Position numbers and translations under genes: made by a program. This document shows, one piece after another, positions 3,314 through 38,759 of a DNA stretch of 64,000 bases. This DNA comes from Mycoplasmatota bacterium (GTDB taxonomy: Bacteria; Bacillota_I; Bacilli_A; RF39; UBA660): contig JAWXUI010000003.1 in NCBI GenBank assembly GCA_044432805.1, positions 40,013 to 104,012 on the forward strand, written 5' to 3'. Numbering within the stretch: position 1 is the first letter of the stretch; each line of letters starts with the position of its first letter. The notes beneath the pieces are model-generated. The model was not told where the DNA came from. It saw only the letters and a program-made list of their open reading frames with translations, and made no database searches.

Positions 3314-5287
3314 TTAATCTTGGTGTTCTTCTATATTTTTCAATAATTCTTCTTTATTCATTTTTGTATAACCTTTGATATTTTTTTCTTTAGCTAAATT
3401 TTTTAACTCTTCTAAAGTTAAATCATCTGTACTAGATTTTTCTTTTTCTTCTTTAGGCATACAACCATGTTTTTCTAAATAATCTATTTCTTCTTTTGTA
3501 ATAGTCTCATGCTCTAATAAAGTATTGGCAATAAGATCTAATAAATCTTTATTTTCTTTCATTATTTTTTCTGTTTTTTTATAGCATTCATCTATTATCT
3601 TTCTTTGTTCTTGGTCTATTTCAAATGCAACTTGTGAAGAAAAGTTTCTTGTTTTATTATAATCTCTTCCTAAGAAAACACTTGATTCTTGGTGTTCAAA
3701 TTGAACTGGTCCAAGTGAACTCATTCCGTATTCTGTTATCATTGATCTTGCAATTTTAGTGGCTTTTTCAAAGTCATTATGCGCTCCTGTTGTAACTTCA
3801 TTGAATACTAATTCTTCTGCTACTCTTCCTCCTAATAAACCACTTATATTATCTAATAATTGTTTTTTAGTTTGTAAGAAAGTTTCTTCTTTTGGCAACA
3901 TTAAATTATATCCACCAGCCATACCTCTTGGTACGATTGTTATTTTTTGTACATCATTAGCACCATCTAAACGTAATCCTATAACTGCGTGTCCTGCTTC
4001 GTGATAAGCAACAACTTTTTTCTCTTTTTCGTTATATTTGTGACTTTTTTTAGCAGGTCCCATCAATACTCTGTCATGAGCTTCATCAAGTTCTGACATT
4101 GTAATTGCTTTTTTCTTTCTTCTAACAGTTAGCAGCGCTGCTTCATTTAATAAATTTTCTAAATCAGCTCCAGAAAAACCAACTGTTCTTCGTGCAATAT
4201 TAGCTAATGCTACATTTTTATCAAATGTTTTTCCTTTTGCATGAACTTCTAAAATTTCTTCACGACCTTTAATATCTGGTAAATTTACTGTTACTTGTCT
4301 ATCGAATCTACCTGGTCTTAATAACGCTGGGTCTAATACATCAGGTCTATTTGTAGCAGCTATTACAATAATTCCTTCATTTGTACCAAAACCATCCATT
4401 TCGGTAAGAAGTTGGTTTAATGTTTGTTCTCTTTCATCGTGTCCTCCACCAACACCTGTTCCTCTTTGTCTACCTACTGCATCTATTTCATCAATAAATA
4501 TTAAACAAGGCGCTGATTGTTTTGCTTGTTTGAACATATCTCTTACACGACTTGCTCCAACACCTACAAATAATTCAACAAAATCTGAACCACTTATAAA
4601 ATAAAATGGAACTTTTGCTTCTCCAGCTACTGATCTAGCTAACAATGTTTTACCTGTACCAGGTGACCCTGCTAATAAAACACCTTTTGGAATTCTTGCA
4701 CCCATTTCTTTAAATTTCTTAGGCATTTTTAAGAAGTCAATTATTTCTGCTAATTCTTCTTTCTCTTCATCTAATCCAGCAACATCTTTAAATGTTACAT
4801 TTGTTCCGCCAACATTTAATTTGGCGCGGCTTTTCCCAAAGTCTAAAGATTTATTTGCTCCACCCATTTGTTTTGTAATAAAATAAAATGCAACTCCTAA
4901 TAATAATAATAGTGGTAATACTTCAACTAAAAATATCAATAAGAAACTTGAACCAGGATCTTTTATGGTATCAATTTCAAATCCATATTCTGTTGATGTT
5001 GATAATAATGAAGCCATTACTTCATCACTTATTGGAGTTTGAAAGAAAAATGTTTCATTTTCTCCGTAACTCATTAGTGTTCCTGTTACCTCATATACCC
5101 CCGAAGTAGCTCTTGGAGTAATATTTATTTCAACTATTTCTTTGTTTTCTGCATAATTTAAATATTGATCATATGTTATATAATTTACTTTTTGATTTAA
5201 AATATTAAACAAATAAAATACTCCAATCAAAATAAAAAACAAAATAAAATATGATGTAAAACTTTTTTTCATTGTCTTTTTTGTCAT
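3314..5287 (-). CDS. ftsH: ATP-dependent zinc metalloprotease FtsH.
   Basis: 657 aa with an N-terminal TM helix, a Walker A box (GSPGTGKT), an AAA second region of homology, and the HEAGHA zinc motif. Confidence 0.95.
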   Translation of the reverse strand: MTKKTMKKSFTSYFILFFILIGVFYLFNILNQKVNYITYDQYLNYAENKEIVEINITPRATSGVYEVTGTLMSYGENETFFFQTPISDEVMASLLSTSTEYGFEIDTIKDPGSSFLLIFLVEVLPLLLLLGVAFYFITKQMGGANKSLDFGKSRAKLNVGGTNVTFKDVAGLDEEKEELAEIIDFLKMPKKFKEMGARIPKGVLLAGSPGTGKTLLARSVAGEAKVPFYFISGSDFVELFVGVGASRVRDMFKQAKQSAPCLIFIDEIDAVGRQRGTGVGGGHDEREQTLNQLLTEMDGFGTNEGIIVIAATNRPDVLDPALLRPGRFDRQVTVNLPDIKGREEILEVHAKGKTFDKNVALANIARRTVGFSGADLENLLNEAALLTVRRKKKAITMSELDEAHDRVLMGPAKKSHKYNEKEKKVVAYHEAGHAVIGLRLDGANDVQKITIVPRGMAGGYNLMLPKEETFLQTKKQLLDNISGLLGGRVAEELVFNEVTTGAHNDFEKATKIARSMITEYGMSSLGPVQFEHQESSVFLGRDYNKTRNFSSQVAFEIDQEQRKIIDECYKKTEKIMKENKDLLDLIANTLLEHETITKEEIDYLEKHGCMPKEEKEKSSTDDLTLEELKNLAKEKNIKGYTKMNKEELLKNIEEHQD

Positions 5288-12235: not shown

Positions 12236-13114
12236 TCATTCCTTAATATCTAAAATTTCTAAAATCCTATTTAAATCCGCTACATTTGAGTAAGTAATTT
12301 CTATTTTTTTGTCTTTTACTTTAACTTTTGTGTCTAGTTTTTCTCTCATGATGCTTTCTACATATTTATATTTAGGATTTTGTGGTTTTTTTTCTATTTT
12401 ATTCTTCTTTTTAAATGTATTAGTCATTTCTTCTATGTCTCTTACATTTATTTTTTCTTCAACAATTTTATTTGCTATTTGTAAAATTTGTTCTTTATCT
12501 TCTAATTTGCTCAATAATCTAGCATGACTCATACTTAATTTTTTCGAGTTAATTAAATCTTGAACTTCTTCTGGCAGATTTAATAATCCTAACATATTTG
12601 TTAAATGGCTTCTACTTTTTCCTACTTTTTTTGATAATTGTTCTTGAGTAAGAAGTAATTTATCGATTAATGATTTATATGCAAAAGCTTCTTCTATTGC
12701 ACTTAAATTTTCTCTTTGCAAATTTTCTAATAGCGCTATTTCCATCATTTGATCATCGGTAAATGGTCTTATTATTGCTGGAATTGTTTCTTTTTTCGCT
12801 AATTGAGATGCTCTAAATCTTCTTTCTCCGGCTATTATTTCATATCCTTTTATACTTTTCTTTACTATAATAGGTTGAAATACACCGTGTTCTTTTATAG
12901 AATTTGCTAAATCATTTAAAGCTTCTTCGTTAAAAATTTTTCTTGGTTGATATGGATTTGGTCTTAATTGAGTTAATTTCAACTCTGTTATTTCTTCCTT
13001 TGGTGTTGTTTCGTATATGTTTTTTTCTATTGACGCCATATCTAAATTATCAGTATTAAATAATGATTCTAATCCTCTTCCAAGGGCCTTTTTTTTATTT
13101 TCCATTTCTTTCAA
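12236..13114 (-). CDS. parB: Chromosome partitioning protein ParB/Spo0J.
   Basis: It has a ParB N-domain (GERRFRA), an HTH, and GLESLF at the N-terminus. It sits downstream of parA. Confidence 0.9.
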   Translation of the reverse strand: MKEMENKKKALGRGLESLFNTDNLDMASIEKNIYETTPKEEITELKLTQLRPNPYQPRKIFNEEALNDLANSIKEHGVFQPIIVKKSIKGYEIIAGERRFRASQLAKKETIPAIIRPFTDDQMMEIALLENLQRENLSAIEEAFAYKSLIDKLLLTQEQLSKKVGKSRSHLTNMLGLLNLPEEVQDLINSKKLSMSHARLLSKLEDKEQILQIANKIVEEKINVRDIEEMTNTFKKKNKIEKKPQNPKYKYVESIMREKLDTKVKVKDKKIEITYSNVADLNRILEILDIKE

Positions 13115-13880
13115 TCACTTCCTTTGCTAAGTTAAGGTATGCTTCTGTTCCTTTACTATGTGGATCATATGCGATGATTGGTTTCCCATGTGATGGAGAT
13201 TCTGATAATCTAACTAATCTTGGAATAATAGTATCATATACTCTTTCTTTAAAATAACTTTTTATATCTTCTACAACTTCAATTCCTAAATTAGTTCTAT
13301 TATCTAACATCGTCAATAAAACTCCTTCTATATCTAATGTTGGATTAAGATTTTTTTGCGCTAACATAATTGTATTTAACAATTGCATTATTCCTTCTAA
13401 TGCGAAAAATTCACATTGAACTGGTATAATAACCGAATCTGCTGCAGTTAAGGCATTGGTTGTTAATATACCTAATGAAGGAGGACAATCAATTATTATA
13501 TAATCAAACATTTCTTTTGTTATATCTAAATATTTTTTTAATTGATTACCTTTTTCAAATCCGGGTTCAATACGACTTTTTTCCATTAATTCAATATCTG
13601 CCCCAGCTAATTGAATAGTCGCCGGAATAACAAATAAATTTTTAAATTTTGTTTTTACTATTACCTCTTTTAGTTCTGCTTGGTCAATTAATAAATCATA
13701 TGCACTATGCTTTATGTCTGCTTTATTAATCCCTATTCCTGTTGTTGCATTACCTTGAGGATCTAAATCAACTAATAATACTTTTCTTTTTAAAACACCT
13801 AACGATGCGGCTAAATTTATACTCGAAGTAGTTTTTCCTACTCCACCTTTTTGATTTACTAATGCTATTACTTTTCCCAT
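13095..13880 (-). CDS. parA: Chromosome partitioning ATPase ParA/Soj.
   Basis: It carries the KGGVGKTT deviant Walker A and is 261 aa long. Confidence 0.95.
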   Translation of the reverse strand: MGKVIALVNQKGGVGKTTSSINLAASLGVLKRKVLLVDLDPQGNATTGIGINKADIKHSAYDLLIDQAELKEVIVKTKFKNLFVIPATIQLAGADIELMEKSRIEPGFEKGNQLKKYLDITKEMFDYIIIDCPPSLGILTTNALTAADSVIIPVQCEFFALEGIMQLLNTIMLAQKNLNPTLDIEGVLLTMLDNRTNLGIEVVEDIKSYFKERVYDTIIPRLVRLSESPSHGKPIIAYDPHSKGTEAYLNLAKEVIERNGK

Positions 13881-13989: not shown

Positions 13990-15411
13990 TTATTTTTTTG
14001 TTATTTTAAATGTTGCTTGATAAAGATTTGGTAAATCCATTTCATCTAAATCTAAAACGTAACCATATCCTTCGATTGTTTTTGCACATTCTCTAATAGC
14101 ATTAACAACTGTTTTCATATTAACACCTTCAACTATTGGGGTTTCATATGGTTTAATTTCAATTTCTTCTGTATCTCTTAAAGCATAATTATTATATACT
14201 GGTGTTACTATTGGCGCTACTTCTTCTTTAGGAGTATCATCCAATGGTTCATAAAACTTTGAATAATCAATTTCTGTTGGCACCGGAGTGACAATTGGAC
14301 TTTCCTCAGTCTTTGATAATGCGTTATCATTAGATTCTAAGAAAGGTGATGTTTGTTCTGAATTTTCAACAACTGCTTCTACCGGTTTAAATAATGGTTC
14401 TGGTTGAACATTATTTATTAATGATATTTTTTCTTCTACTTTAGGAACTATTACTTCTTCTTCTGGCATCATATTGAAAAATCTACCAGGTTTAACCGCT
14501 TCTTCTATAGTTGGTACTTGTTCAACTTTAACTTCTGGCGTTGATGATTGTAACAATGTATCCATATTAGCTAAAGGTTTTGGTTGATATATATCTTGGC
14601 TATTATTTAATAAACTTTCTATTGAAATAATATCACTTGAATTTGTTTCTTGCATTGGATTCATTGTTATATTGCTTTCTGGACTTACAATTTCTGGTAT
14701 TGTAAATTTTGCTTCATTTTCCATTGTTTTCATTTCCTCATTTTGTTCAGGTTTGATTTGATTTTCTAAACTAACTATATTTTCAGGTGTCTTTATATTT
14801 TGATTTGAACCCGACAATATTTCAGTTATTAAAACATCTGTTTTTTTAACTGTTAATCTTTCCTTAACTATTCTTTCTAAAACTGATATTTGATCACTTT
14901 CTTTTTTTAATCTCAATAAAGATCTTGCATGCCTTTCAGATATTTCTTCTTCTAAAAGTGCTTCTTGTACTTCGTCTGATAATTCTAATAGTCTTAGTTT
15001 ATTTGCAATTGTAGGCTGTTTTTTTCCTAGTTTAATTGCTAAATCTTGTTGTGTTAGATAATTCATATCTAATATTTTTTTATATGAAATAGCTTCTTCA
15101 ATTGGAGTTAAATTTTCTCTTTGGACATTTTCAATTAGCGCGACTTCACTGCTTGTTCTATCATTCATATCAGTAACTATTGCTGGAATTTTTTTTCTTC
15201 CTGCTAATACTGAAGCTTTGTATCTTCTTTCTCCAGCAATTATTTCATATTTATCTCCTAATTTTCGAACAACTATCGGTTCTATTACACCATGTTCTTT
15301 TATCGATTTTGCTAATTCATTTAAACTTTCTTCATTAAATTTTATTCTTGGTTGAAATCTATTTGGTAATATTTCTTCAACATCTAATTCAGAAAATATT
15401 CTTTCATTCAT
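13990..15411 (-). CDS. noc: Noc-like ParB-family protein with a long low-complexity insertion.
   Basis: The N-terminal ~210 aa (…PNRFQPR…GERRYKA…TIANKLRLLELSDEVQEAL…ISERHARSLL) and the last ~40 aa (VVNAIRECAKTIEGYGYVLDLDEMD…YQATFKI) align to B. subtilis Noc. About 240 aa rich in E, P, V and T lie between them. Its position between parA and rsmG matches noc. Confidence 0.8.
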   Translation of the reverse strand: MNERIFSELDVEEILPNRFQPRIKFNEESLNELAKSIKEHGVIEPIVVRKLGDKYEIIAGERRYKASVLAGRKKIPAIVTDMNDRTSSEVALIENVQRENLTPIEEAISYKKILDMNYLTQQDLAIKLGKKQPTIANKLRLLELSDEVQEALLEEEISERHARSLLRLKKESDQISVLERIVKERLTVKKTDVLITEILSGSNQNIKTPENIVSLENQIKPEQNEEMKTMENEAKFTIPEIVSPESNITMNPMQETNSSDIISIESLLNNSQDIYQPKPLANMDTLLQSSTPEVKVEQVPTIEEAVKPGRFFNMMPEEEVIVPKVEEKISLINNVQPEPLFKPVEAVVENSEQTSPFLESNDNALSKTEESPIVTPVPTEIDYSKFYEPLDDTPKEEVAPIVTPVYNNYALRDTEEIEIKPYETPIVEGVNMKTVVNAIRECAKTIEGYGYVLDLDEMDLPNLYQATFKITKK

Positions 15412-21715: not shown

Positions 21716-21963
21716 TTTTCCACACATTTCAACAACTTGTTTGATAAAAAGTTACATTTCAACAGTCTTTTCCACATTTTATTTTGTCTTTATAGATTAT
21801 ATTAAAACGCTTATTTGTTTTATCAACATATATTGTGGATAAGTTATTTACATAAAGTTTTGAAAAGTGGATAATTATTAATAACTTTTCCACAGATGGT
21901 GTTGAAAAATATATTTAAAGCTTATTTTATATCACTTACTACTGTGGAAAACAAAGTGGATAA
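21716..21963. promoter_or_regulatory. oriC upstream DnaA-box cluster, also containing the dnaA promoter region.
   Basis: Seven 9-mers match TTATCCACA with at most one mismatch. TTTTCCACA occurs at 21716 and 21768. TGTGGATAA (perfect reverse complement) occurs at 21834. AGTGGATAA occurs at 21866. TTTTCCACA occurs at 21886. TGTGGAAAA occurs at 21944. AGTGGATAA occurs at 21955. Confidence 0.8.
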
Positions 21964-22057: not shown

Positions 22058-23407
22058 ATGGATTTAGACGCTTTGTGGAATAAATTTTTAAGTTCAATAG
22101 AGGATAAATATTCTTCTATTATGTTTGAAACATACTTTAAAGAAACAAAATTACATAGTTTAAAAGATAATAAAGCTTTAATAATTGTTCCTATGCACGT
22201 TCACAAAAAATACTTAAAAGAATATCATAATGAAGAAAATGAAGACATTTTTTCAAAATTAACGGGAAGTTATTTTAATTTTGAGTATCTATTGGAAGAA
22301 GAAATTGAAGAAAACATAACTATTGATGTTAATTCTGTTGGCGTTCCTTCGTATATTAGTATAGAATCAAATTTAAAACCAGAATATTCATTTGAAAATT
22401 TTATTGTTGGAAATTCAAATAAATTTGCCCATGCAACATCTTTAGCAGTAGCTGAAAAACCCGGATTTATGTATAATCCTTTATTTATATATGGACAAAG
22501 TGGGTTAGGAAAAACACATTTAATGCATGCAATCGGAAATTATATCTCAAATAATTATAAAAAAAATGTACTTTATGTAACAAGTGAACAATTCGTTAAT
22601 GATTTTATTGATTTGCATAGAAATAATAAAGAAAATAACTTTTTGGAAGTTAAAAACTTTAAAAACAAGTATCGAAATATCGATGTATTAATGATTGATG
22701 ATATACAATATTTGCAAATAGCTAACAAAGCACAGCAAGAATTTTTTAATACATTTAATGAATTACATGGAAATAATAAACAAATAATAATATCATCTGA
22801 TAGATCTCCAGATGATTTAAAATCTTTAGAAGATCGTTTAAAAACAAGGTTTAACTGGGGATTAACAATAGACATTTTACCACCGGACTTTGATTTACGA
22901 ATGGCGATTATTAATAAAAAAATAGAAGGTAATACACTAGCAAGAGACTTTTCCACAGAAGTAAAAGAGCTAATTGCTAGTAATTGTACGAGTGACGTTA
23001 GAAAATTAGAAGGTGCTATTACTAGAGTTTTAGCTTATGCTACAATGATGAATGGTTCTAAAATTAATTTAGAATTAGCAACTGAGGCACTAAAAGACTA
23101 TTTTGTTAAAAGTATTGTATCAAAAAATAAAATAGATCAAGTACAACAATTAGTGTCTAGTCATTATAATATAACGGTTGAGGACATGAAAAGTAAAAAG
23201 AGAGTTGCTAAAATTGCTGTTCCTAGACAAATTGCTATGTATATATGTAGAATTTCAATAGGAGAGTCTTTACCAAAAATTGGAATTGAATTTGGTGGAA
23301 AAGATCATACAACAGTCATGCATTCTGTGGATAAAATAAAAAAAGAGTTAAAACAAAACACAGAATTACAAAAAATAGTGAATAAAATAATTGATCAAAT
23401 AAAATAA
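22058..23407 (+). CDS. dnaA: Chromosomal replication initiator DnaA.
   Basis: The start MDLDALWNKFL follows a TAGGAGGTG RBS. The track start at 21995 has no RBS. It has a Walker A box (GQSGLGKTH) and a C-terminal DNA-binding domain. Confidence 0.95.
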   Translation: MDLDALWNKFLSSIEDKYSSIMFETYFKETKLHSLKDNKALIIVPMHVHKKYLKEYHNEENEDIFSKLTGSYFNFEYLLEEEIEENITIDVNSVGVPSYISIESNLKPEYSFENFIVGNSNKFAHATSLAVAEKPGFMYNPLFIYGQSGLGKTHLMHAIGNYISNNYKKNVLYVTSEQFVNDFIDLHRNNKENNFLEVKNFKNKYRNIDVLMIDDIQYLQIANKAQQEFFNTFNELHGNNKQIIISSDRSPDDLKSLEDRLKTRFNWGLTIDILPPDFDLRMAIINKKIEGNTLARDFSTEVKELIASNCTSDVRKLEGAITRVLAYATMMNGSKINLELATEALKDYFVKSIVSKNKIDQVQQLVSSHYNITVEDMKSKKRVAKIAVPRQIAMYICRISIGESLPKIGIEFGGKDHTTVMHSVDKIKKELKQNTELQKIVNKIIDQIK

Positions 23408-23408
23408 A

Positions 23409-23540
23409 AGTGGAAAACTTTACTTATTAACAATTTTATCCACAGGAAAAAAACTAAAAAAGTATTTGTTTTATATAAGTAAACTTCACTTTTCCACTTT
23501 TTCCACACTAATAATAAAAACAATATAAAATAATAATTAA
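23409..23540. promoter_or_regulatory. oriC downstream DnaA-box cluster plus an AT-rich unwinding element between dnaA and dnaN.
   Basis: AGTGGAAAA occurs at 23409. TTATCCACA (perfect) occurs at 23436. TTTTCCACT occurs at 23490. TTTTCCACA occurs at 23499. A ~35-bp nearly pure AT tract follows. Confidence 0.7.
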
Positions 23541-24764: not shown

Positions 24765-25220
24765 ATGAAAAATAAATATGAAATCAACAGCACTACTTGT
24801 GCAATAATACCATTAGATGTTAATACATCACAGATAATTGAACACGATGATACTTTCTTAGTAACTCAAAATTCATTAAACATAATAGATGAAAGTTGTA
24901 AATATTTTGGTAGTTCTTATGAAGGAAGAAAGGTAGGTACAAAGGCATTAACGGGTATCAATTATAAAACCCCAATTATAATTGAGGAAACAAAAAGCAT
25001 TATATTTTTTCCGACCTCATCACCAAGATTAAATTTAAGTACTTGGATTAATATTAACTATGTAGAAGAATATAAAAAAAACAAAGAATTTTCTAATATT
25101 TTATTAAAAAATGGACAGGTTATTGAACTAAATTTATCTATAGGATCACTAGAAAATCAGATATTAAGAGCAACAAGATTAGAATCGATATTAAGAAAGA
25201 GAAAAAACATTGAAAATTAA
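24765..25220 (+). CDS. comK: ComK-family competence transcription factor homolog.
   Basis: It aligns with B. subtilis ComK: YEINSTTCAIIPL vs YEVNGATIAVLP, CKYFGSSYEGRKVGT vs CRFFGSSYAGRKAGT, IFFPTSSP vs FLFPTLSS, and NGQVIELNLSIGSLENQILRATRL vs NGKTMELPISYNSFENQVYRTAWL. It has a GGAGGA RBS. Confidence 0.8.
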   Translation: MKNKYEINSTTCAIIPLDVNTSQIIEHDDTFLVTQNSLNIIDESCKYFGSSYEGRKVGTKALTGINYKTPIIIEETKSIIFFPTSSPRLNLSTWININYVEEYKKNKEFSNILLKNGQVIELNLSIGSLENQILRATRLESILRKRKNIEN

Positions 25221-28361: not shown

Positions 28362-30803
28362 ATGGATAGATTAGAATTAATAAATATAGAAAAAGAAGTA
28401 AAAGATTCATTTTTACAATATTCAATGAGTGTTATTGTTTCCAGAGCATTGCCTGATTTAAGAGATGGATTGAAGCCAGTTCATAGAAGAATATTATATG
28501 CAATGTATGAAGATAAATATACTCCAGATAAACAATATGTTAAAAGTGCCAAAACAGTAGGTAATGTAATGGGTAAATACCATCCTCATGGAGATTCAGC
28601 TATCTACGATTCGATGGTTAGAATGGCACAAGACTTTAGCTACAGACACACGTTAGTAGATGGACATGGAAACTTTGGGTTTATAGACGGATCGACAGCA
28701 GCTGCGTCAAGATATACTGAGTCAAGATTATCTAAAATTTCAATGGAAATGCTTAGAGATATAGATAAAAAAACTATTGATATGGTAGCTAATTATGATG
28801 CATCAGAAGAAGAACCAACAGTATTACCAAGTAGATACCCAAATATACTAGTAAATGGAACAACAGGAATAGCGGTTGGAATGGCAACTAACATACCACC
28901 TCACAATTTAGGAGAAGTAATAGATGCATGCGCAGCTTATATAGATAATCATGATATTGATTTAGATGGTTTATTAGAGCATATAAAAGGTCCGGATTTT
29001 CCTACCGGAGGATCAATTCTTGGTAATTCAGGAATAAGAAAAGCATATGAAACAGGAAAAGGTTCAATAGTTATAAGAGGAAAAGTAGACATTGTAGAGA
29101 AAAATGGAAAAACCCAAATTGTTATAACAGAAGTACCTTATCAAACTAATACATCAAACTTACAATTAAGAATAGCAGAGCTAGTAAGAGACAAAGTGTT
29201 AACTGGAATTGCTGATTTAAGAGATGAAACATCATTAAAAAATGGATTTAAATTGGTAGTTGAAATAAAAAAGGAAGCAAATGCTTCAGTTATTTTAAAT
29301 AATTTATATAAACACACTCAATTACAAACATCTTATGGAATAAATCTATTAATGTTACATAATGGAAGACCTCATACATTTGGCTTACAAGAAATCATAA
29401 AACATTATATAGACTTTCAAAAGGAAATTATTTTTAGAAGAACTAGACATAATTTAAACAAAGCAGAAGAACGTTTCCATATTTTATCCGGGTTAAAAAT
29501 AGCGCTTGATCATATTGATGAAGTAATTAAAATCATTAGAGAATCAAAAACAGACTCTATTGCAAGAGAAGAATTAATTTCTAGATTTTCATTAGATAAA
29601 ATACAAGCAGAATCAATACTAGAAATGAAATTAAGAAGATTAACTGGTCTAGAAAAAGATAAAATAATAAACGAATTAGAACAATTATCTATATTAATAG
29701 CTGATTTAAAAGATATTTTATCAAGTGAAGATAGAGTTTATCAAATAATAAAAGAAGAAATGTTAGAAATCAAAAGAAAATTTTCAAATGATAGAAGAAC
29801 AATAATTGATATGACAGCGATTGAATTTATCGAAGATGAGTCACTAATACCTGTTGAAAATATCATGATAACACTTACAAATAAAGGTTATATTAAGAGA
29901 ATCACAACAGAAACATATAGAACACAAAACAGAGGTGGAGTTGGAGTTAAAGGAATGGCTACAAATGAAGAAGATTTTGTAGAAAAAATGATAACAATGA
30001 CAACACATGATTACATTTTATTCTTCTCTAATAAAGGAAGAGTATATAGAATAAAAGGATATGAAGTTCCTTTATATAGTAGACAAGCAAAAGGATTGCC
30101 AATTATTAATTTATTACCATTAGAACCAGAAGAAACAATAACTTCTATGTTAATGGTAGAAAACAAAGACCAATCTCCATATATTGTGTTTTGTACACAA
30201 AATGGTTTAGTCAAAAGAACAGAGTTAAAAGAATTTGACAGAATTAGGACATCAGGAAAAATAGCGATAACTTTAAAAGAAGATGATAGCTTAATTGGTG
30301 TTAAGAAGACAAACGGTGATAACGAAATATTAATTGCATCATCAAATGGTAGAATGATTCGCTTCAACGAAAAAGAAATCAGAGTAATGGGAAGAACTGC
30401 ATCTGGAGTAAAAGGAATTGATATTGATAGTGGCAAATGTGTTGGAATGGAAGTTACTTCTGAAAATAATGAAGTTTTGGTAATTACTGAGAACGGATTT
30501 GGTAAAAAAACAGATATAGAACAATATAGAAAAACACATAGAGGCAGCAAAGGAGTTAAAGCTCTTAATGTCACAGAAAAAAATGGTAATATAGTAACAT
30601 TTAAAATTGTTTCAGGGAATGAAGATCTTATGATAATGACTAATAATGGAATAATCATAAGGGTTTCTCTTGAACAAGTATCTTCTACAGGAAGAGTTGC
30701 ACAAGGAGTGAAAATAATTAATCTTAAAGATAACCAAAAGGTTAGTACTATAGCTTTAGTTGAAAAAGCGACTATAGAAGAAGAAATAATTACAGAAATT
30801 TAA
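28362..30803 (+). CDS. gyrA: DNA gyrase subunit A.
   Basis: 813 aa with the active-site region and the GyrA-box beta-pinwheel repeats. Confidence 0.97.
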
Positions 30804-30815
30804 TAAAACAAGTAA

Positions 30816-30858
30816 GTTAAATATTTCCCGGGAAATATTTAACTTTTTTATTTTTTTA
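30816..30858 (+). terminator. Intrinsic terminator after gyrA: a 28-bp perfect palindrome followed by a T-run.
   Basis: GTTAAATATTTCCCGGGAAATATTTAAC at 30816-30843 is followed by TTTTTTATTTTTTT. Confidence 0.7.
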
Positions 30859-30989
30859 AATAATACACTAATATACTTGAATAAAAACTTAATGGAACAT
30901 GAAAATATGGTGTAAAAAGCATATAAATTTAAAAACAAGGCCAATATTTAGTGTCGTTTTTTAATTTTTAATAGAAAAAGAAATTGTTA

Positions 30990-31975
30990 ATAATAAAATC
31001 ATGTAAGGTTTCACGTGAAACTTTACAAAAGAATTAGGGAAGATTATTTTAATAAAATTATTAATCAACGACTACAGATACAAAAAACAGTGTAAAATAG
31101 ACATTAATTACCAAAAAACACACTATTTTTAATCAAAACCAATAAAACATAAATAAATTCAATATAAATCAATAAAAAATTTTACGATAAATATTTTTGA
31201 AGAATTAATCAAGGATGTTTTGACTAGAACAACAATTAATGAATATTAATACAAAAACAGTTGGTAATTGTTATAAATAACTTTGTTTCTAACTAAATTT
31301 GATAAAAAAATGAGAATGTCGACAATGAAATTATGCAAAGTTTCACGTGAAACATTCTAAAAAAATTAGATGAACTTGTTTTAATTGAAACAAAATTCAA
31401 TAAATATCGAGAAAAAACAAAGAAAAACAGATGGTAATTGTTATAATTAGTTTATATTTGACTTAAATTAACAAAAAAATAAGTTGTTTGGATACAACTT
31501 ATTTTAATTTTTGTCATTAAACGCAACGTAAAAATAATGAACTTTTAAAAACAATAATATTTATTAAAGTTTTTTTATTTTTTATAAAAAAGAACCTGCT
31601 GACAACAAAATTATGCAAAGTTTCACGTGGAACATTCTAAAAAATTAATTGAACTTATTTTGATTAAAATAAAAAATAATGAGTATTGAAACAAAAAACA
31701 ATAAAAAACAGATGATAATTGTCTTATTATTAACTTAAATTGACGAAAAAACAAAATAATAAGCAAAAAAATAAATTATTTGAATATAACGGTTTTGATT
31801 TTATTATTAAGTACGATGGAAATACAAAGAACTTTTAAATAACAATAATCTTTGGTGCCTTTTTTTAAAATTTTTGATAAAAAAATCCTGTTAAAAATAA
31901 AATTATGCAAAGTTTCGCGTAAAACGTTCAAAAAATCAATAAAAATAGACAATAATTATTATGAATTTATCTTTT
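30990..31975. repeat. Diverged tandem repeats (3-4 units of ~280-330 bp), each containing a 14-bp palindrome GTTTCACGTGAAAC or a near variant.
   Basis: Palindrome copies lie at 31008, 31340, 31620 (GTTTCACGTGGAAC) and 31913 (GTTTCGCGTAAAAC). The flanks are conserved: AAATTATGCAAAGTTTCACGTGAAACATTCTAAAAAA. Secondary conserved blocks also recur: AAAAACAGATGGTAATTGTTATAAT, GAACTTTTAAAAACAATAAT and TTGACTTAAATTAAC. There is no ORF of at least 60 aa. Confidence 0.6.
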
Positions 31976-32111
31976 TTTAACTAAAATTAATATATTTTTT
32001 GAAATAATGATTAAAAAACGCAAAAATCAAATTTAAATTAAACTTGAATTTATTCCCACTATTATATTTAAAAAGTAATACTTGCAAAAAAATGATAATT
32101 AAGGTATATTT

Positions 32112-32190
32112 ATTATGCGCAACATTAATGTTTGAACCAGGTCAGAATTGAAAAATAGCAGCCTTAAAAACCTCTTGGTGTGTGTGCTTT
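32112..32190 (+). ncRNA. ffs: Putative small (4.5S-type) signal recognition particle RNA.
   Basis: CCAGGTCAGAATTGAAAAATAGCAGCC matches the conserved SRP RNA domain IV, which is GGUCAG on one side of the apical stem, a GNRA tetraloop, and AGCAGCC on the other side. TTGCAA-N17-TATATT lies upstream at 32083-32111. The 3' end has a GU-rich partner strand and a T-run. Bacillus places scr in the same tadA-dnaX neighbourhood. Confidence 0.5.
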
Positions 32191-32208
32191 TTTTATTGAG
32201 GTGAAAAA

Positions 32209-37890: not shown

Positions 37891-38724
37891 ATGTCGCAAA
37901 AAAGTTATGATAATACACCAACGTTATATTTAATACCAACACCAATTGGTAATATGCAAGATATAACATTGAGAGCTATAGAAACATTTAAATTCGTTGA
38001 TGTAGTGTTCACAGAAGATACAAGAGATACAGGATTGCTATTGAACCAACTTGAAATAAAAAAGAAAATGGTTCCTAGTCATAAATTTAATGAAGAAATC
38101 AGTAAAAATAAAATGCTAGAATATCTAAAAAACGGACAAAATGTAGGATTAGCTAGTGATAGAGGAACACCAGCGATAAGTGACCCTGGATATATTTTAG
38201 TAAAACATGCAATTGATAATGGATTTAATGTTGTATCATTACCGGGTGCAACAGCGCTTATTCCAGCGTTGATTATGTCAGGAATAAATCCACAACCATT
38301 TCTATTTTACGGGTTTCTTAACAATAAGGAAGGTAAAAAAACAGAAGAACTTCTTGAATTAAAAAATAATAAATCAACACTTATTTTTTACGAATCACCA
38401 CATAGAATAGAAAAAACTCTTGAAATTATGCAAAAAAGTTTAGGAAATAGAAACATAAGTATTTCCCGGGAAATATCAAAAAAATACGAAGAAGTTTATA
38501 GAGGCACAATAAACCTTGTCAAACAAGAAGTAGAAAATGTTAAGGGTGAGTTAGTAATAGTCGTTGAAGGAAATTTAGAAAAACAAAATTTTGATAATAT
38601 AACCGTAATTGAGCACGTTAATTTGTTCATAAAAGAAGGAAAAACAAAAAATGATGCTATAAAATTAGTTGCAAAAGAAAGAAATGTTCCAAAAAGTGAA
38701 ATTTACAACCAATATATTAAATAA
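37891..38724 (+). CDS. rsmI: 16S rRNA 2'-O-ribose C1402 methyltransferase RsmI.
   Basis: It starts TLYLIPTPIGNMQDITLRA and has a tetrapyrrole-methylase fold. Confidence 0.9.
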   Translation: MSQKSYDNTPTLYLIPTPIGNMQDITLRAIETFKFVDVVFTEDTRDTGLLLNQLEIKKKMVPSHKFNEEISKNKMLEYLKNGQNVGLASDRGTPAISDPGYILVKHAIDNGFNVVSLPGATALIPALIMSGINPQPFLFYGFLNNKEGKKTEELLELKNNKSTLIFYESPHRIEKTLEIMQKSLGNRNISISREISKKYEEVYRGTINLVKQEVENVKGELVIVVEGNLEKQNFDNITVIEHVNLFIKEGKTKNDAIKLVAKERNVPKSEIYNQYIK

Positions 38725-38733
38725 AAATAAAGA

Positions 38734-38759
38734 AAAAATATTTCCCGGGAAATATTTTT
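38734..38759 (+). terminator. A 26-bp perfect palindrome between rsmI and pth, possibly a terminator or attenuator.
   Basis: The sequence is AAAAATATTTCCCGGGAAATATTTTT. It shares its core with the gyrA terminator. Confidence 0.5.

Follow-up and report, generated by a model that had tools for sequence, protein, structure and literature searches.

A predicted tandem parS array between gyrA and the SRP RNA gene as the probable origin-proximal centromere of an uncultured gut bacterium

Directly downstream of gyrA, the 64-kb window (i.e., the whole stretch of 64,000 nucleotides that was analyzed) contains an island in which a 14-bp palindrome, GTTTCACGTGAAAC, recurs in four diverged tandem units. 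The locus raises the questions of what this palindrome is, which protein may recognize it and whether the other blocks shared by the units have a role of their own. In the first-pass annotation, tandem small RNA genes, an array of binding sites and toxin–antitoxin repeats were all put forward as possible answers.

The palindrome was found at 31008 and 31340 (both perfect), at 31620 (one mismatch) and at 31912 (two mismatches), in agreement with the four tandem copies annotated before, and the 64-kb window contains no further match. The expectation by chance is 0.12 matches, and four matches were reached in 0 of 100 shuffles. The start-to-start spacing of the palindromes is 332, 280 and 292 bp; the first two values had been given correctly, and the third replaces an earlier figure of 293. 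A repeat finder recovered four 74-nt copies in register at these same distances (332/280/292 bp), together with secondary blocks common to the units, and TRF returned a period of 292 bp across 31324-31940 with 75% matches. The units and their borders are the following:

28362..30803, plus strand: gyrA, left border of the array (1162 bits to the GyrA equivalog)
30958..31997, plus strand: four diverged tandem units (A to D), starting at 30958, 31290, 31570 and 31862
32111..32196, plus strand: SRP RNA gene (ffs), right border, directly after the array

The genes 3′ of the SRP RNA gene are tadA and then dnaX. The array fills a spacer without genes between gyrA and the SRP RNA gene, the exception being a 62-aa ORF with a TTG start on the minus strand (30756-30944), which overlaps the left edge of the array and was judged trivial; the former statement that ORFs of 60 aa or more are missing is, with this exception, nearly true. 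The position just downstream of gyrA, whose end is at 30803, was confirmed, as was the lack of rRNA and tRNA genes at this slot, since none is found in the 64-kb window. No transposase signal was found in the array. Three Logan contigs, independent of each other and derived from different sequencing runs, match the segment 30816-32208 with 0-1 mismatch, so that the array is no assembly artefact. The host genome has a GC content of ~25%.

The consensus of chromosomal parS sites is TGTTTCAC-GTGAAACA (Jalal et al. 2020, PMC7383237). Widened by one base per side, the array motif fits the consensus TGTT[T/C]CACGTG[A/G]AACA, and the palindrome represents the parS core (TGTTNCACGTGAAACA), that is, a predicted loading site of ParB/Spo0J. 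The motif which the first-pass annotation could not place in any known family is the textbook parS consensus (PMC7383237). In detail, the four sites are:

31007..31022, no strand: parS-1, GGTTTCACGTGAAACT, 14-bp core perfect, both outermost bases off the consensus
31339..31354, no strand: parS-2, AGTTTCACGTGAAACA, 15 of the 16 consensus positions, the best site of the array
31619..31634, no strand: parS-3, AGTTTCACGTGGAACA, reverse complement TGTTCCACGTGAAACT, one outer mismatch
31911..31926, no strand: parS-4, AGTTTCGCGTAAAACG, decayed, four mismatches including the central CACGTG

Copies 1-3 show one or two mismatches to the 16-bp consensus, exclusively in the outermost bases, and their 14-bp core matches it, copy 3 being the T/C variant. 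Copy 4 fails, with its four mismatches, and parS-4 is probably not bound by ParB. The reverse complement of parS-3, TGTTCCACGTGAAACT, is the B. subtilis-type T/C variant of parS, a form common in the arrays of the relatives. Palindromes 1 and 2 had correctly been called perfect and palindrome 4 mutated, but palindrome 3 is not a mutated copy, as it represents this variant. The perfect 16-mer is present in none of the four array sites, as opposed to most sites in the relatives, and position 1 is occupied by A or G and not by T. A further sequence, TGTTTTAATTGAAACA at 31377-31392, lies 38 bp after parS-2 and is absent from unit C; it keeps the arms of parS around a scrambled centre and represents a site that has decayed or else a coincidental match.

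The sites of ParB (parS) and those of Noc (NBS) are told apart by positions 1 and 6 of the half-site (PMC7383237). All array palindromes have G at position 1 and A at position 6, and the NBS form (TATTTCCCGGGAAATA, A at 1 and C at 6 of the half-site) was found in none of them, which assigns the array to parS and not to NBS. The Noc site itself, ATTTCCCGGGAAAT, is present in three perfect copies at 30823, 38461 and 38740, all of them outside the repeat cores. The first copy is embedded in a larger element:

30816..30843, no strand: 28-bp perfect palindrome GTTAAATATTTCCCGGGAAATATTTAAC followed by a T-run, the centre of which (30823-30836) is a perfect NBS

Together with its T-run (-12.5 kcal/mol), the 28-bp palindrome looks like the terminator hairpin of gyrA. 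The Logan contigs start exactly at this palindrome, and an NBS right after gyrA is also found in several relatives (loci L025, L029-L034 and L080). The second copy (38461-38474) is placed inside an rsmI-like ORF (37891-38724), where it encodes I-S-R-E-I with the GC-rich codons TCC CGG, and its position, ~7 kb after gyrA, is kept in L002, L004, L006 and L007. The kept position and the GC-rich codons in a 25%-GC genome suggest that the DNA site is selected for in addition to the protein sequence. The third copy occupies 38740-38753.

The elements needed to place the array relative to the origin and to its predicted partners are located in the same window:

21716..21963, no strand: oriC DnaA-box cluster, upstream of dnaA, at the GC-skew switch
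12236..13114, minus strand: ParB/Spo0J, 292 aa, with the N-terminal LGRGLESL and the motifs GERRFRA and ENLQRE
13095..13880, minus strand: ParA/Soj ATPase, 261 aa, adjoining the ParB gene
13990..15411, minus strand: Noc-type ParB paralogue, 473 aa, specificity positions Q/K/E/R, NBS type

The GC skew changes sign at ~21.5-22 kb, and a second DnaA-box cluster is found at 23326-23507. The positions of the DnaA-box cluster and of the skew switch place the array 9-10 kb to the right of oriC. A scan for DnaA boxes gave none within the array of the window. The genes rsmG, noc-like, parA and parB are all present in the window, on the opposite side of oriC from the array.

The best PDB match of the 292-aa ParB is the B. 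subtilis Spo0J structure 6SDK (1e-62). The specificity of the two paralogues is switched by four positions, which are R173/T179/A184/G201 in ParB and Q/K/K/R in Noc (Jalal et al., PMC7383237). Counted from the 6SDK alignment, the respective residues of the 292-aa protein are R/M/N/S and of the parS type: an Arg is found at the position contacting the parS guanine, and there is neither a Lys at 179 or 184 nor an Arg at 201. The 473-aa protein, on the other hand, matches best to Noc structures (7NG0, 2e-59), and its residues Q/K/E/R together with the three perfect NBS show a clean separation of the two specificities. The Noc-type protein is the predicted partner of the NBS sites and not of parS; judged from these residues, the genome thus seems to run both paralogous systems with B. 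subtilis-like specificities.

The alignment of the Noc-type protein to the Geobacillus Noc starts ~25-30 residues into the latter, so that the protein seems to lack the N-terminal helix that targets Noc to the membrane. At its other end, the protein carries a ~270-aa acidic, Pro-rich extension with no Pfam domain. No SMC gene was found in the 64-kb window; a 1083-aa ORF considered as a candidate was rejected, as it is Mfd. The origin region also includes an ORF of the ComK family (Pfam, 1e-41) at 24765-25220 on the plus strand, between dnaN and recF.

The relatives were fetched as GyrA matches from genome and metagenome collections. The closest of them (GyrA identity 60-72%) are gut MAGs labelled uncultured Tenericutes, Bacilli or Mollicutes, Acholeplasma sp. 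CAG:878 and Clostridium sp. CAG:302, which we take to be an RF39-like lineage; the GyrA scan of metagenomes gave no relative closer than 69%. With the presence of at least one parS (one mismatch at most) within 2 kb after gyrA as the criterion, 58 of the 62 loci with 60-72% GyrA identity carry parS after gyrA, in arrays of 1-14 sites, and two or more sites are present in 53 of the 62. The 88 kb downstream of gyrA in these loci contain 242 parS; the remaining 768 kb contain none. In three of the four loci that lack parS, the sequence stops 10-287 bp after gyrA.

The fourth, L103, has 2.4 kb downstream of gyrA and no site. At ~4805-4920 it diverges from a 99%-identical relative (L092), precisely where the NBS palindrome lies, and the sole further match between the two is a 28-bp inverted one, ~3 kb away in L092. 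The locus was not retained as a counter-example and is read as an assembly junction, which looks like a palindrome-mediated misassembly or inversion.

The arrays of the relatives have periods of 28, 37-41, 74, 79-85, ~150-170, ~290 and ~550 bp, within an overall range of 28 to ~570 bp. Only parS and a few adjacent bases are common to the units of the window and the array of any relative; for the secondary blocks, blastn and motif searches in 160 loci gave only chance matches in coding regions. The comparison of the unit with relatives and Rfam which the first-pass annotation had in view was thus positive for parS and negative for the secondary blocks, and Rfam returned nothing in the array. 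More distant genomes (Gemella, Flavobacteriia and others) mostly do not have the feature. Two parS each are found 0.5-1.7 kb after gyrA in L063 (12909 and 13758, Vaginisenegalia) and L077 (13909 and 14069, a Balneolaceae MAG), two unrelated genomes; one of these four sites has a single mismatch. The position of parS after gyrA may, judging from these sites, recur outside the clade.

Among the units of the window, parS with 10 bp on either side shows 72-94% identity, compared with 42-66% for the rest of the unit (Fisher p 1e-3 to 1e-6). This pattern fits a site maintained by purifying selection or by gene conversion, accompanied by decay of the passenger sequence. Conservation also extends to ~12 bp on either side of parS (AAATTATGCAAAG...TTCTAAAAAA), which parS alone does not explain and which could result from recent duplication or gene conversion. 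The secondary blocks described in the first-pass annotation do exist, for instance AAACAGATGGTAATTGT, which occurs three times (31255, 31425 and 31706), but two of them are less regular than had been described: TGTTATAAT is perfect in only one of the four units (unit B, 31438-31446), and the hairpin is intact only in the same unit:

31476..31505, plus strand: AT-rich hairpin of unit B only (-11.5 kcal/mol, z = -3.95), plus T-run

The counterpart in unit C does not fold (0 kcal/mol), and this loss points to the hairpin as a passenger of the duplication. The best explanation for the other shared blocks (TGTTATAAT, the hairpin, GAACTTTTAAA and others) is likewise that they are duplication passengers and not functional parts.

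One block deserves separate consideration, as parS could be combined here with a second, lineage-specific protein site, formed by the AACAGATGGTAATTGT block, by the conserved flanks or by both, into a composite module of the kind met in the relatives. The block occurs three times with at most one mismatch and in the array only, three occurrences at up to three mismatches being reached in 2 of 100 shuffles; in units B and C it follows parS at 83-84 bp, and composite units (parS with NBS and parS with a DnaA box) do occur in relatives. However, it is found in the array of no relative, it has a different offset in units A and D, and recent duplication would be enough to account for its conservation, units B and C being 66-68% identical outside the core. 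A second site of this kind is considered unlikely in the window.

It is even harder to see each unit as a small RNA gene with an extended -10 promoter, a terminator hairpin and the palindrome as its operator. Unit B would fit this description, as TGTTATAAT is followed ~30 nt downstream by the stable hairpin and its T-run. Nevertheless, the -10 motif is perfect in one unit out of four and the hairpin is present in one of two comparable units, and both blocks are absent from all arrays of the relatives. Neither promoters nor terminators are in excess, with 17 promoter-like sites against 13.7 +/- 3.9 in shuffles and 0 terminator-like sites. No Rfam family matches the array at the gathering threshold or at E <= 1, the only matches being the SRP RNA and two chance miRNA ones. 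The proposal of tandem small RNAs with a promoter and a terminator per repeat is very improbable on these grounds.

With its intergenic tandem units of about 300 bp, the island resembles the LDR and SIB loci in layout, and a type I toxin–antitoxin family, in which each unit would encode a small toxic peptide and an antisense RNA, had been suggested by analogy. There is, however, no small ORF conserved in position, frame or length across the units; the candidates all start with TTG or GTG and are not preceded by a Shine-Dalgarno sequence, and the sole peptide string that they share, KLCKVSR, is parS translated. The best-conserved element is a palindrome of the protein-binding type and not an ORF, and toxin–antitoxin repeats can practically be discarded.

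The same applies to a decayed rRNA operon, its promoter region or an insertion sequence: in B. subtilis rrnO follows gyrA, which was the premise for the decayed rrn spacer considered earlier, and the contigs of many relatives end just after gyrA, but the order in all six relatives with full flanks is gyrA, parS array and SRP RNA gene with no rRNA, the array shows no rRNA, tRNA or transposase signal, and the contig breaks are explained by the many MAG contigs that stop inside tandem parS arrays (e.g., L001, L005 and L011-L014). For the sampled relatives, a decayed rrn operon is refuted.

The reading that we prefer, with a probability of about 0.9, is that the island is the origin-proximal centromere of the chromosome, a tandem array of predicted parS sites that would have arisen by repeated duplication of a ~290-bp spacer segment. 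It rests on the identity of the motif, its position, a ParB whose specificity residues fit parS, the presence of a ParA and a clade-wide conservation which concerns the sites only. Of the three options raised at first, the one of a nucleoid protein with an array of binding sites close to the origin was right in kind, the sites being parS and the protein ParB/Spo0J, and the other two are left without support.

The ParABS pathway is established (reviewed in PMC7333895). By analogy, ParB dimers (gene at 12236-13114) would recognize each parS through their helix-turn-helix, bind CTP, close into a clamp and slide onto the flanking DNA, so that a partition complex would be built over the gyrA-ffs-dnaX region beside oriC. 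ParA/Soj (13095-13880) would act on this complex and move it, and the complex would probably load the SMC condensin, by which the new sister origins would be resolved and segregated. Several parS in a row may provide a higher loading rate and redundancy. Slippage or unequal recombination could make and remove copies, which would result in the turnover of the array across the clade.

In a few relatives, parS and NBS are interleaved in one array (L024 6699-6950, L022 12712-13600, L009 12646-12763 and L025 12437-12523). In L024, parS is followed by an NBS 40 bp later, twice, with a third parS thereafter. The predicted loading sites of ParB and Noc are thus juxtaposed in these four arrays. The CAG:302-like relatives (L028-L033, L080, L090-L104, L146, L159 and L163) show another arrangement, with units of ~150-170 bp in arrays after gyrA/ffs and a DnaA-box-like 9-mer (TTTTCCACA, ATATCCACA or TATCAACA) at a fixed distance of +2 to +4 bp after parS. 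Depending on the array, about a third to four fifths of the parS sites are accompanied by this 9-mer, and the density of DnaA boxes is 2.4-4.8 per kb in the array versus 0.3-1.4 per kb elsewhere in the locus.

A broader hypothesis, which we regard as doubtful and put forward tentatively, is that the whole chromosomal centromere of the clade has been condensed into one fast-evolving tandem array between gyrA and ffs, and that the unit has in some members become a composite origin-organizing module, with parS at a fixed spacing to a Noc site (L024, L022, L009 and L025) or to a DnaA box (CAG:302 group, +2 to +4 bp); the array of the window would then be a plain and partly decayed version. If true, the composite module would physically couple the loading of ParB/SMC with membrane tethering by Noc or with the titration of DnaA.

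For the window itself, the result annotates the probable centromere of an uncultured gut bacterium of 25% GC and shows that the trail towards a new family of small RNAs or toxin–antitoxins was a false one. In practical terms, the parS arrays and the adjacent NBS palindrome break MAG and Logan assemblies right after gyrA. The parS arrays of the clade also differ in site number (1-14) and in spacing (28 to ~570 bp) while their locus stays the same, which makes them a natural series. This series bears on the number and the clustering of parS; why the number varies and what drives the clustering is an open question in the field (Jalal & Le 2020, PMC7333895).

In relation to the parS/Spo0J system of B. 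subtilis, the window has the same 16-bp consensus, including the T/C at position 5, the same origin-proximal location and the same gene set (rsmG, noc, soj and spo0J), and its ParB matches best to 6SDK. The parS sites of B. subtilis are dispersed over hundreds of kb, mostly inside genes. On the contrary, the sites of the window form a tandem-duplicated array in one spacer, and there is none in parB or elsewhere in the 64 kb. The Noc-NBS system of B. subtilis is also mirrored by the three perfect copies of ATTTCCCGGGAAAT and the Noc-type protein with Q/K/E/R, while the array itself consists of parS and not of NBS.

Clusters of parS are known from P. aeruginosa, with four sites near oriC (PMC4368675), M. 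xanthus, with 22 sites (PMC3899335), C. glutamicum, with a cluster near oriC (PMC7083940), and S. coelicolor, with 20-23 sites (reviewed in PMC7333895). The clade is similar to these species in having multiple parS concentrated near oriC. In the known clusters one parS is often sufficient, which means that extra copies may be redundant or serve as loading boosters. These clusters are scattered between genes over several kb to tens of kb and are not known to consist of head-to-tail repeats. The sites of the clade, in contrast, are placed in true tandem repeats, the unit of which varies from 28 to ~570 bp between genomes.

Centromeres built of tandem repeats are classic for plasmids, for instance sopC of F with its twelve 43-bp repeats. 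The array resembles sopC in its head-to-tail repeats with one palindrome for a ParB-family protein in each, and L010 (14 sites, 40-41 bp) has a very similar layout. It differs from sopC in having a site and a ParB of the chromosomal type and a location beside oriC, and the units of the window are longer (280-332 bp) and already diverged. Taken together, the parS clusters near oriC and the tandem centromeres of plasmids indicate that the kind of array reported here is already known. Among the titles and abstracts listed in literature searches, no description of such arrays or composite units was found. Compared with the known systems, two features are mildly new: throughout the clade a true tandem array with a fast-changing unit length is strictly located in the gyrA-ffs spacer, and relatives have composite units of parS with NBS and of parS with a DnaA box.
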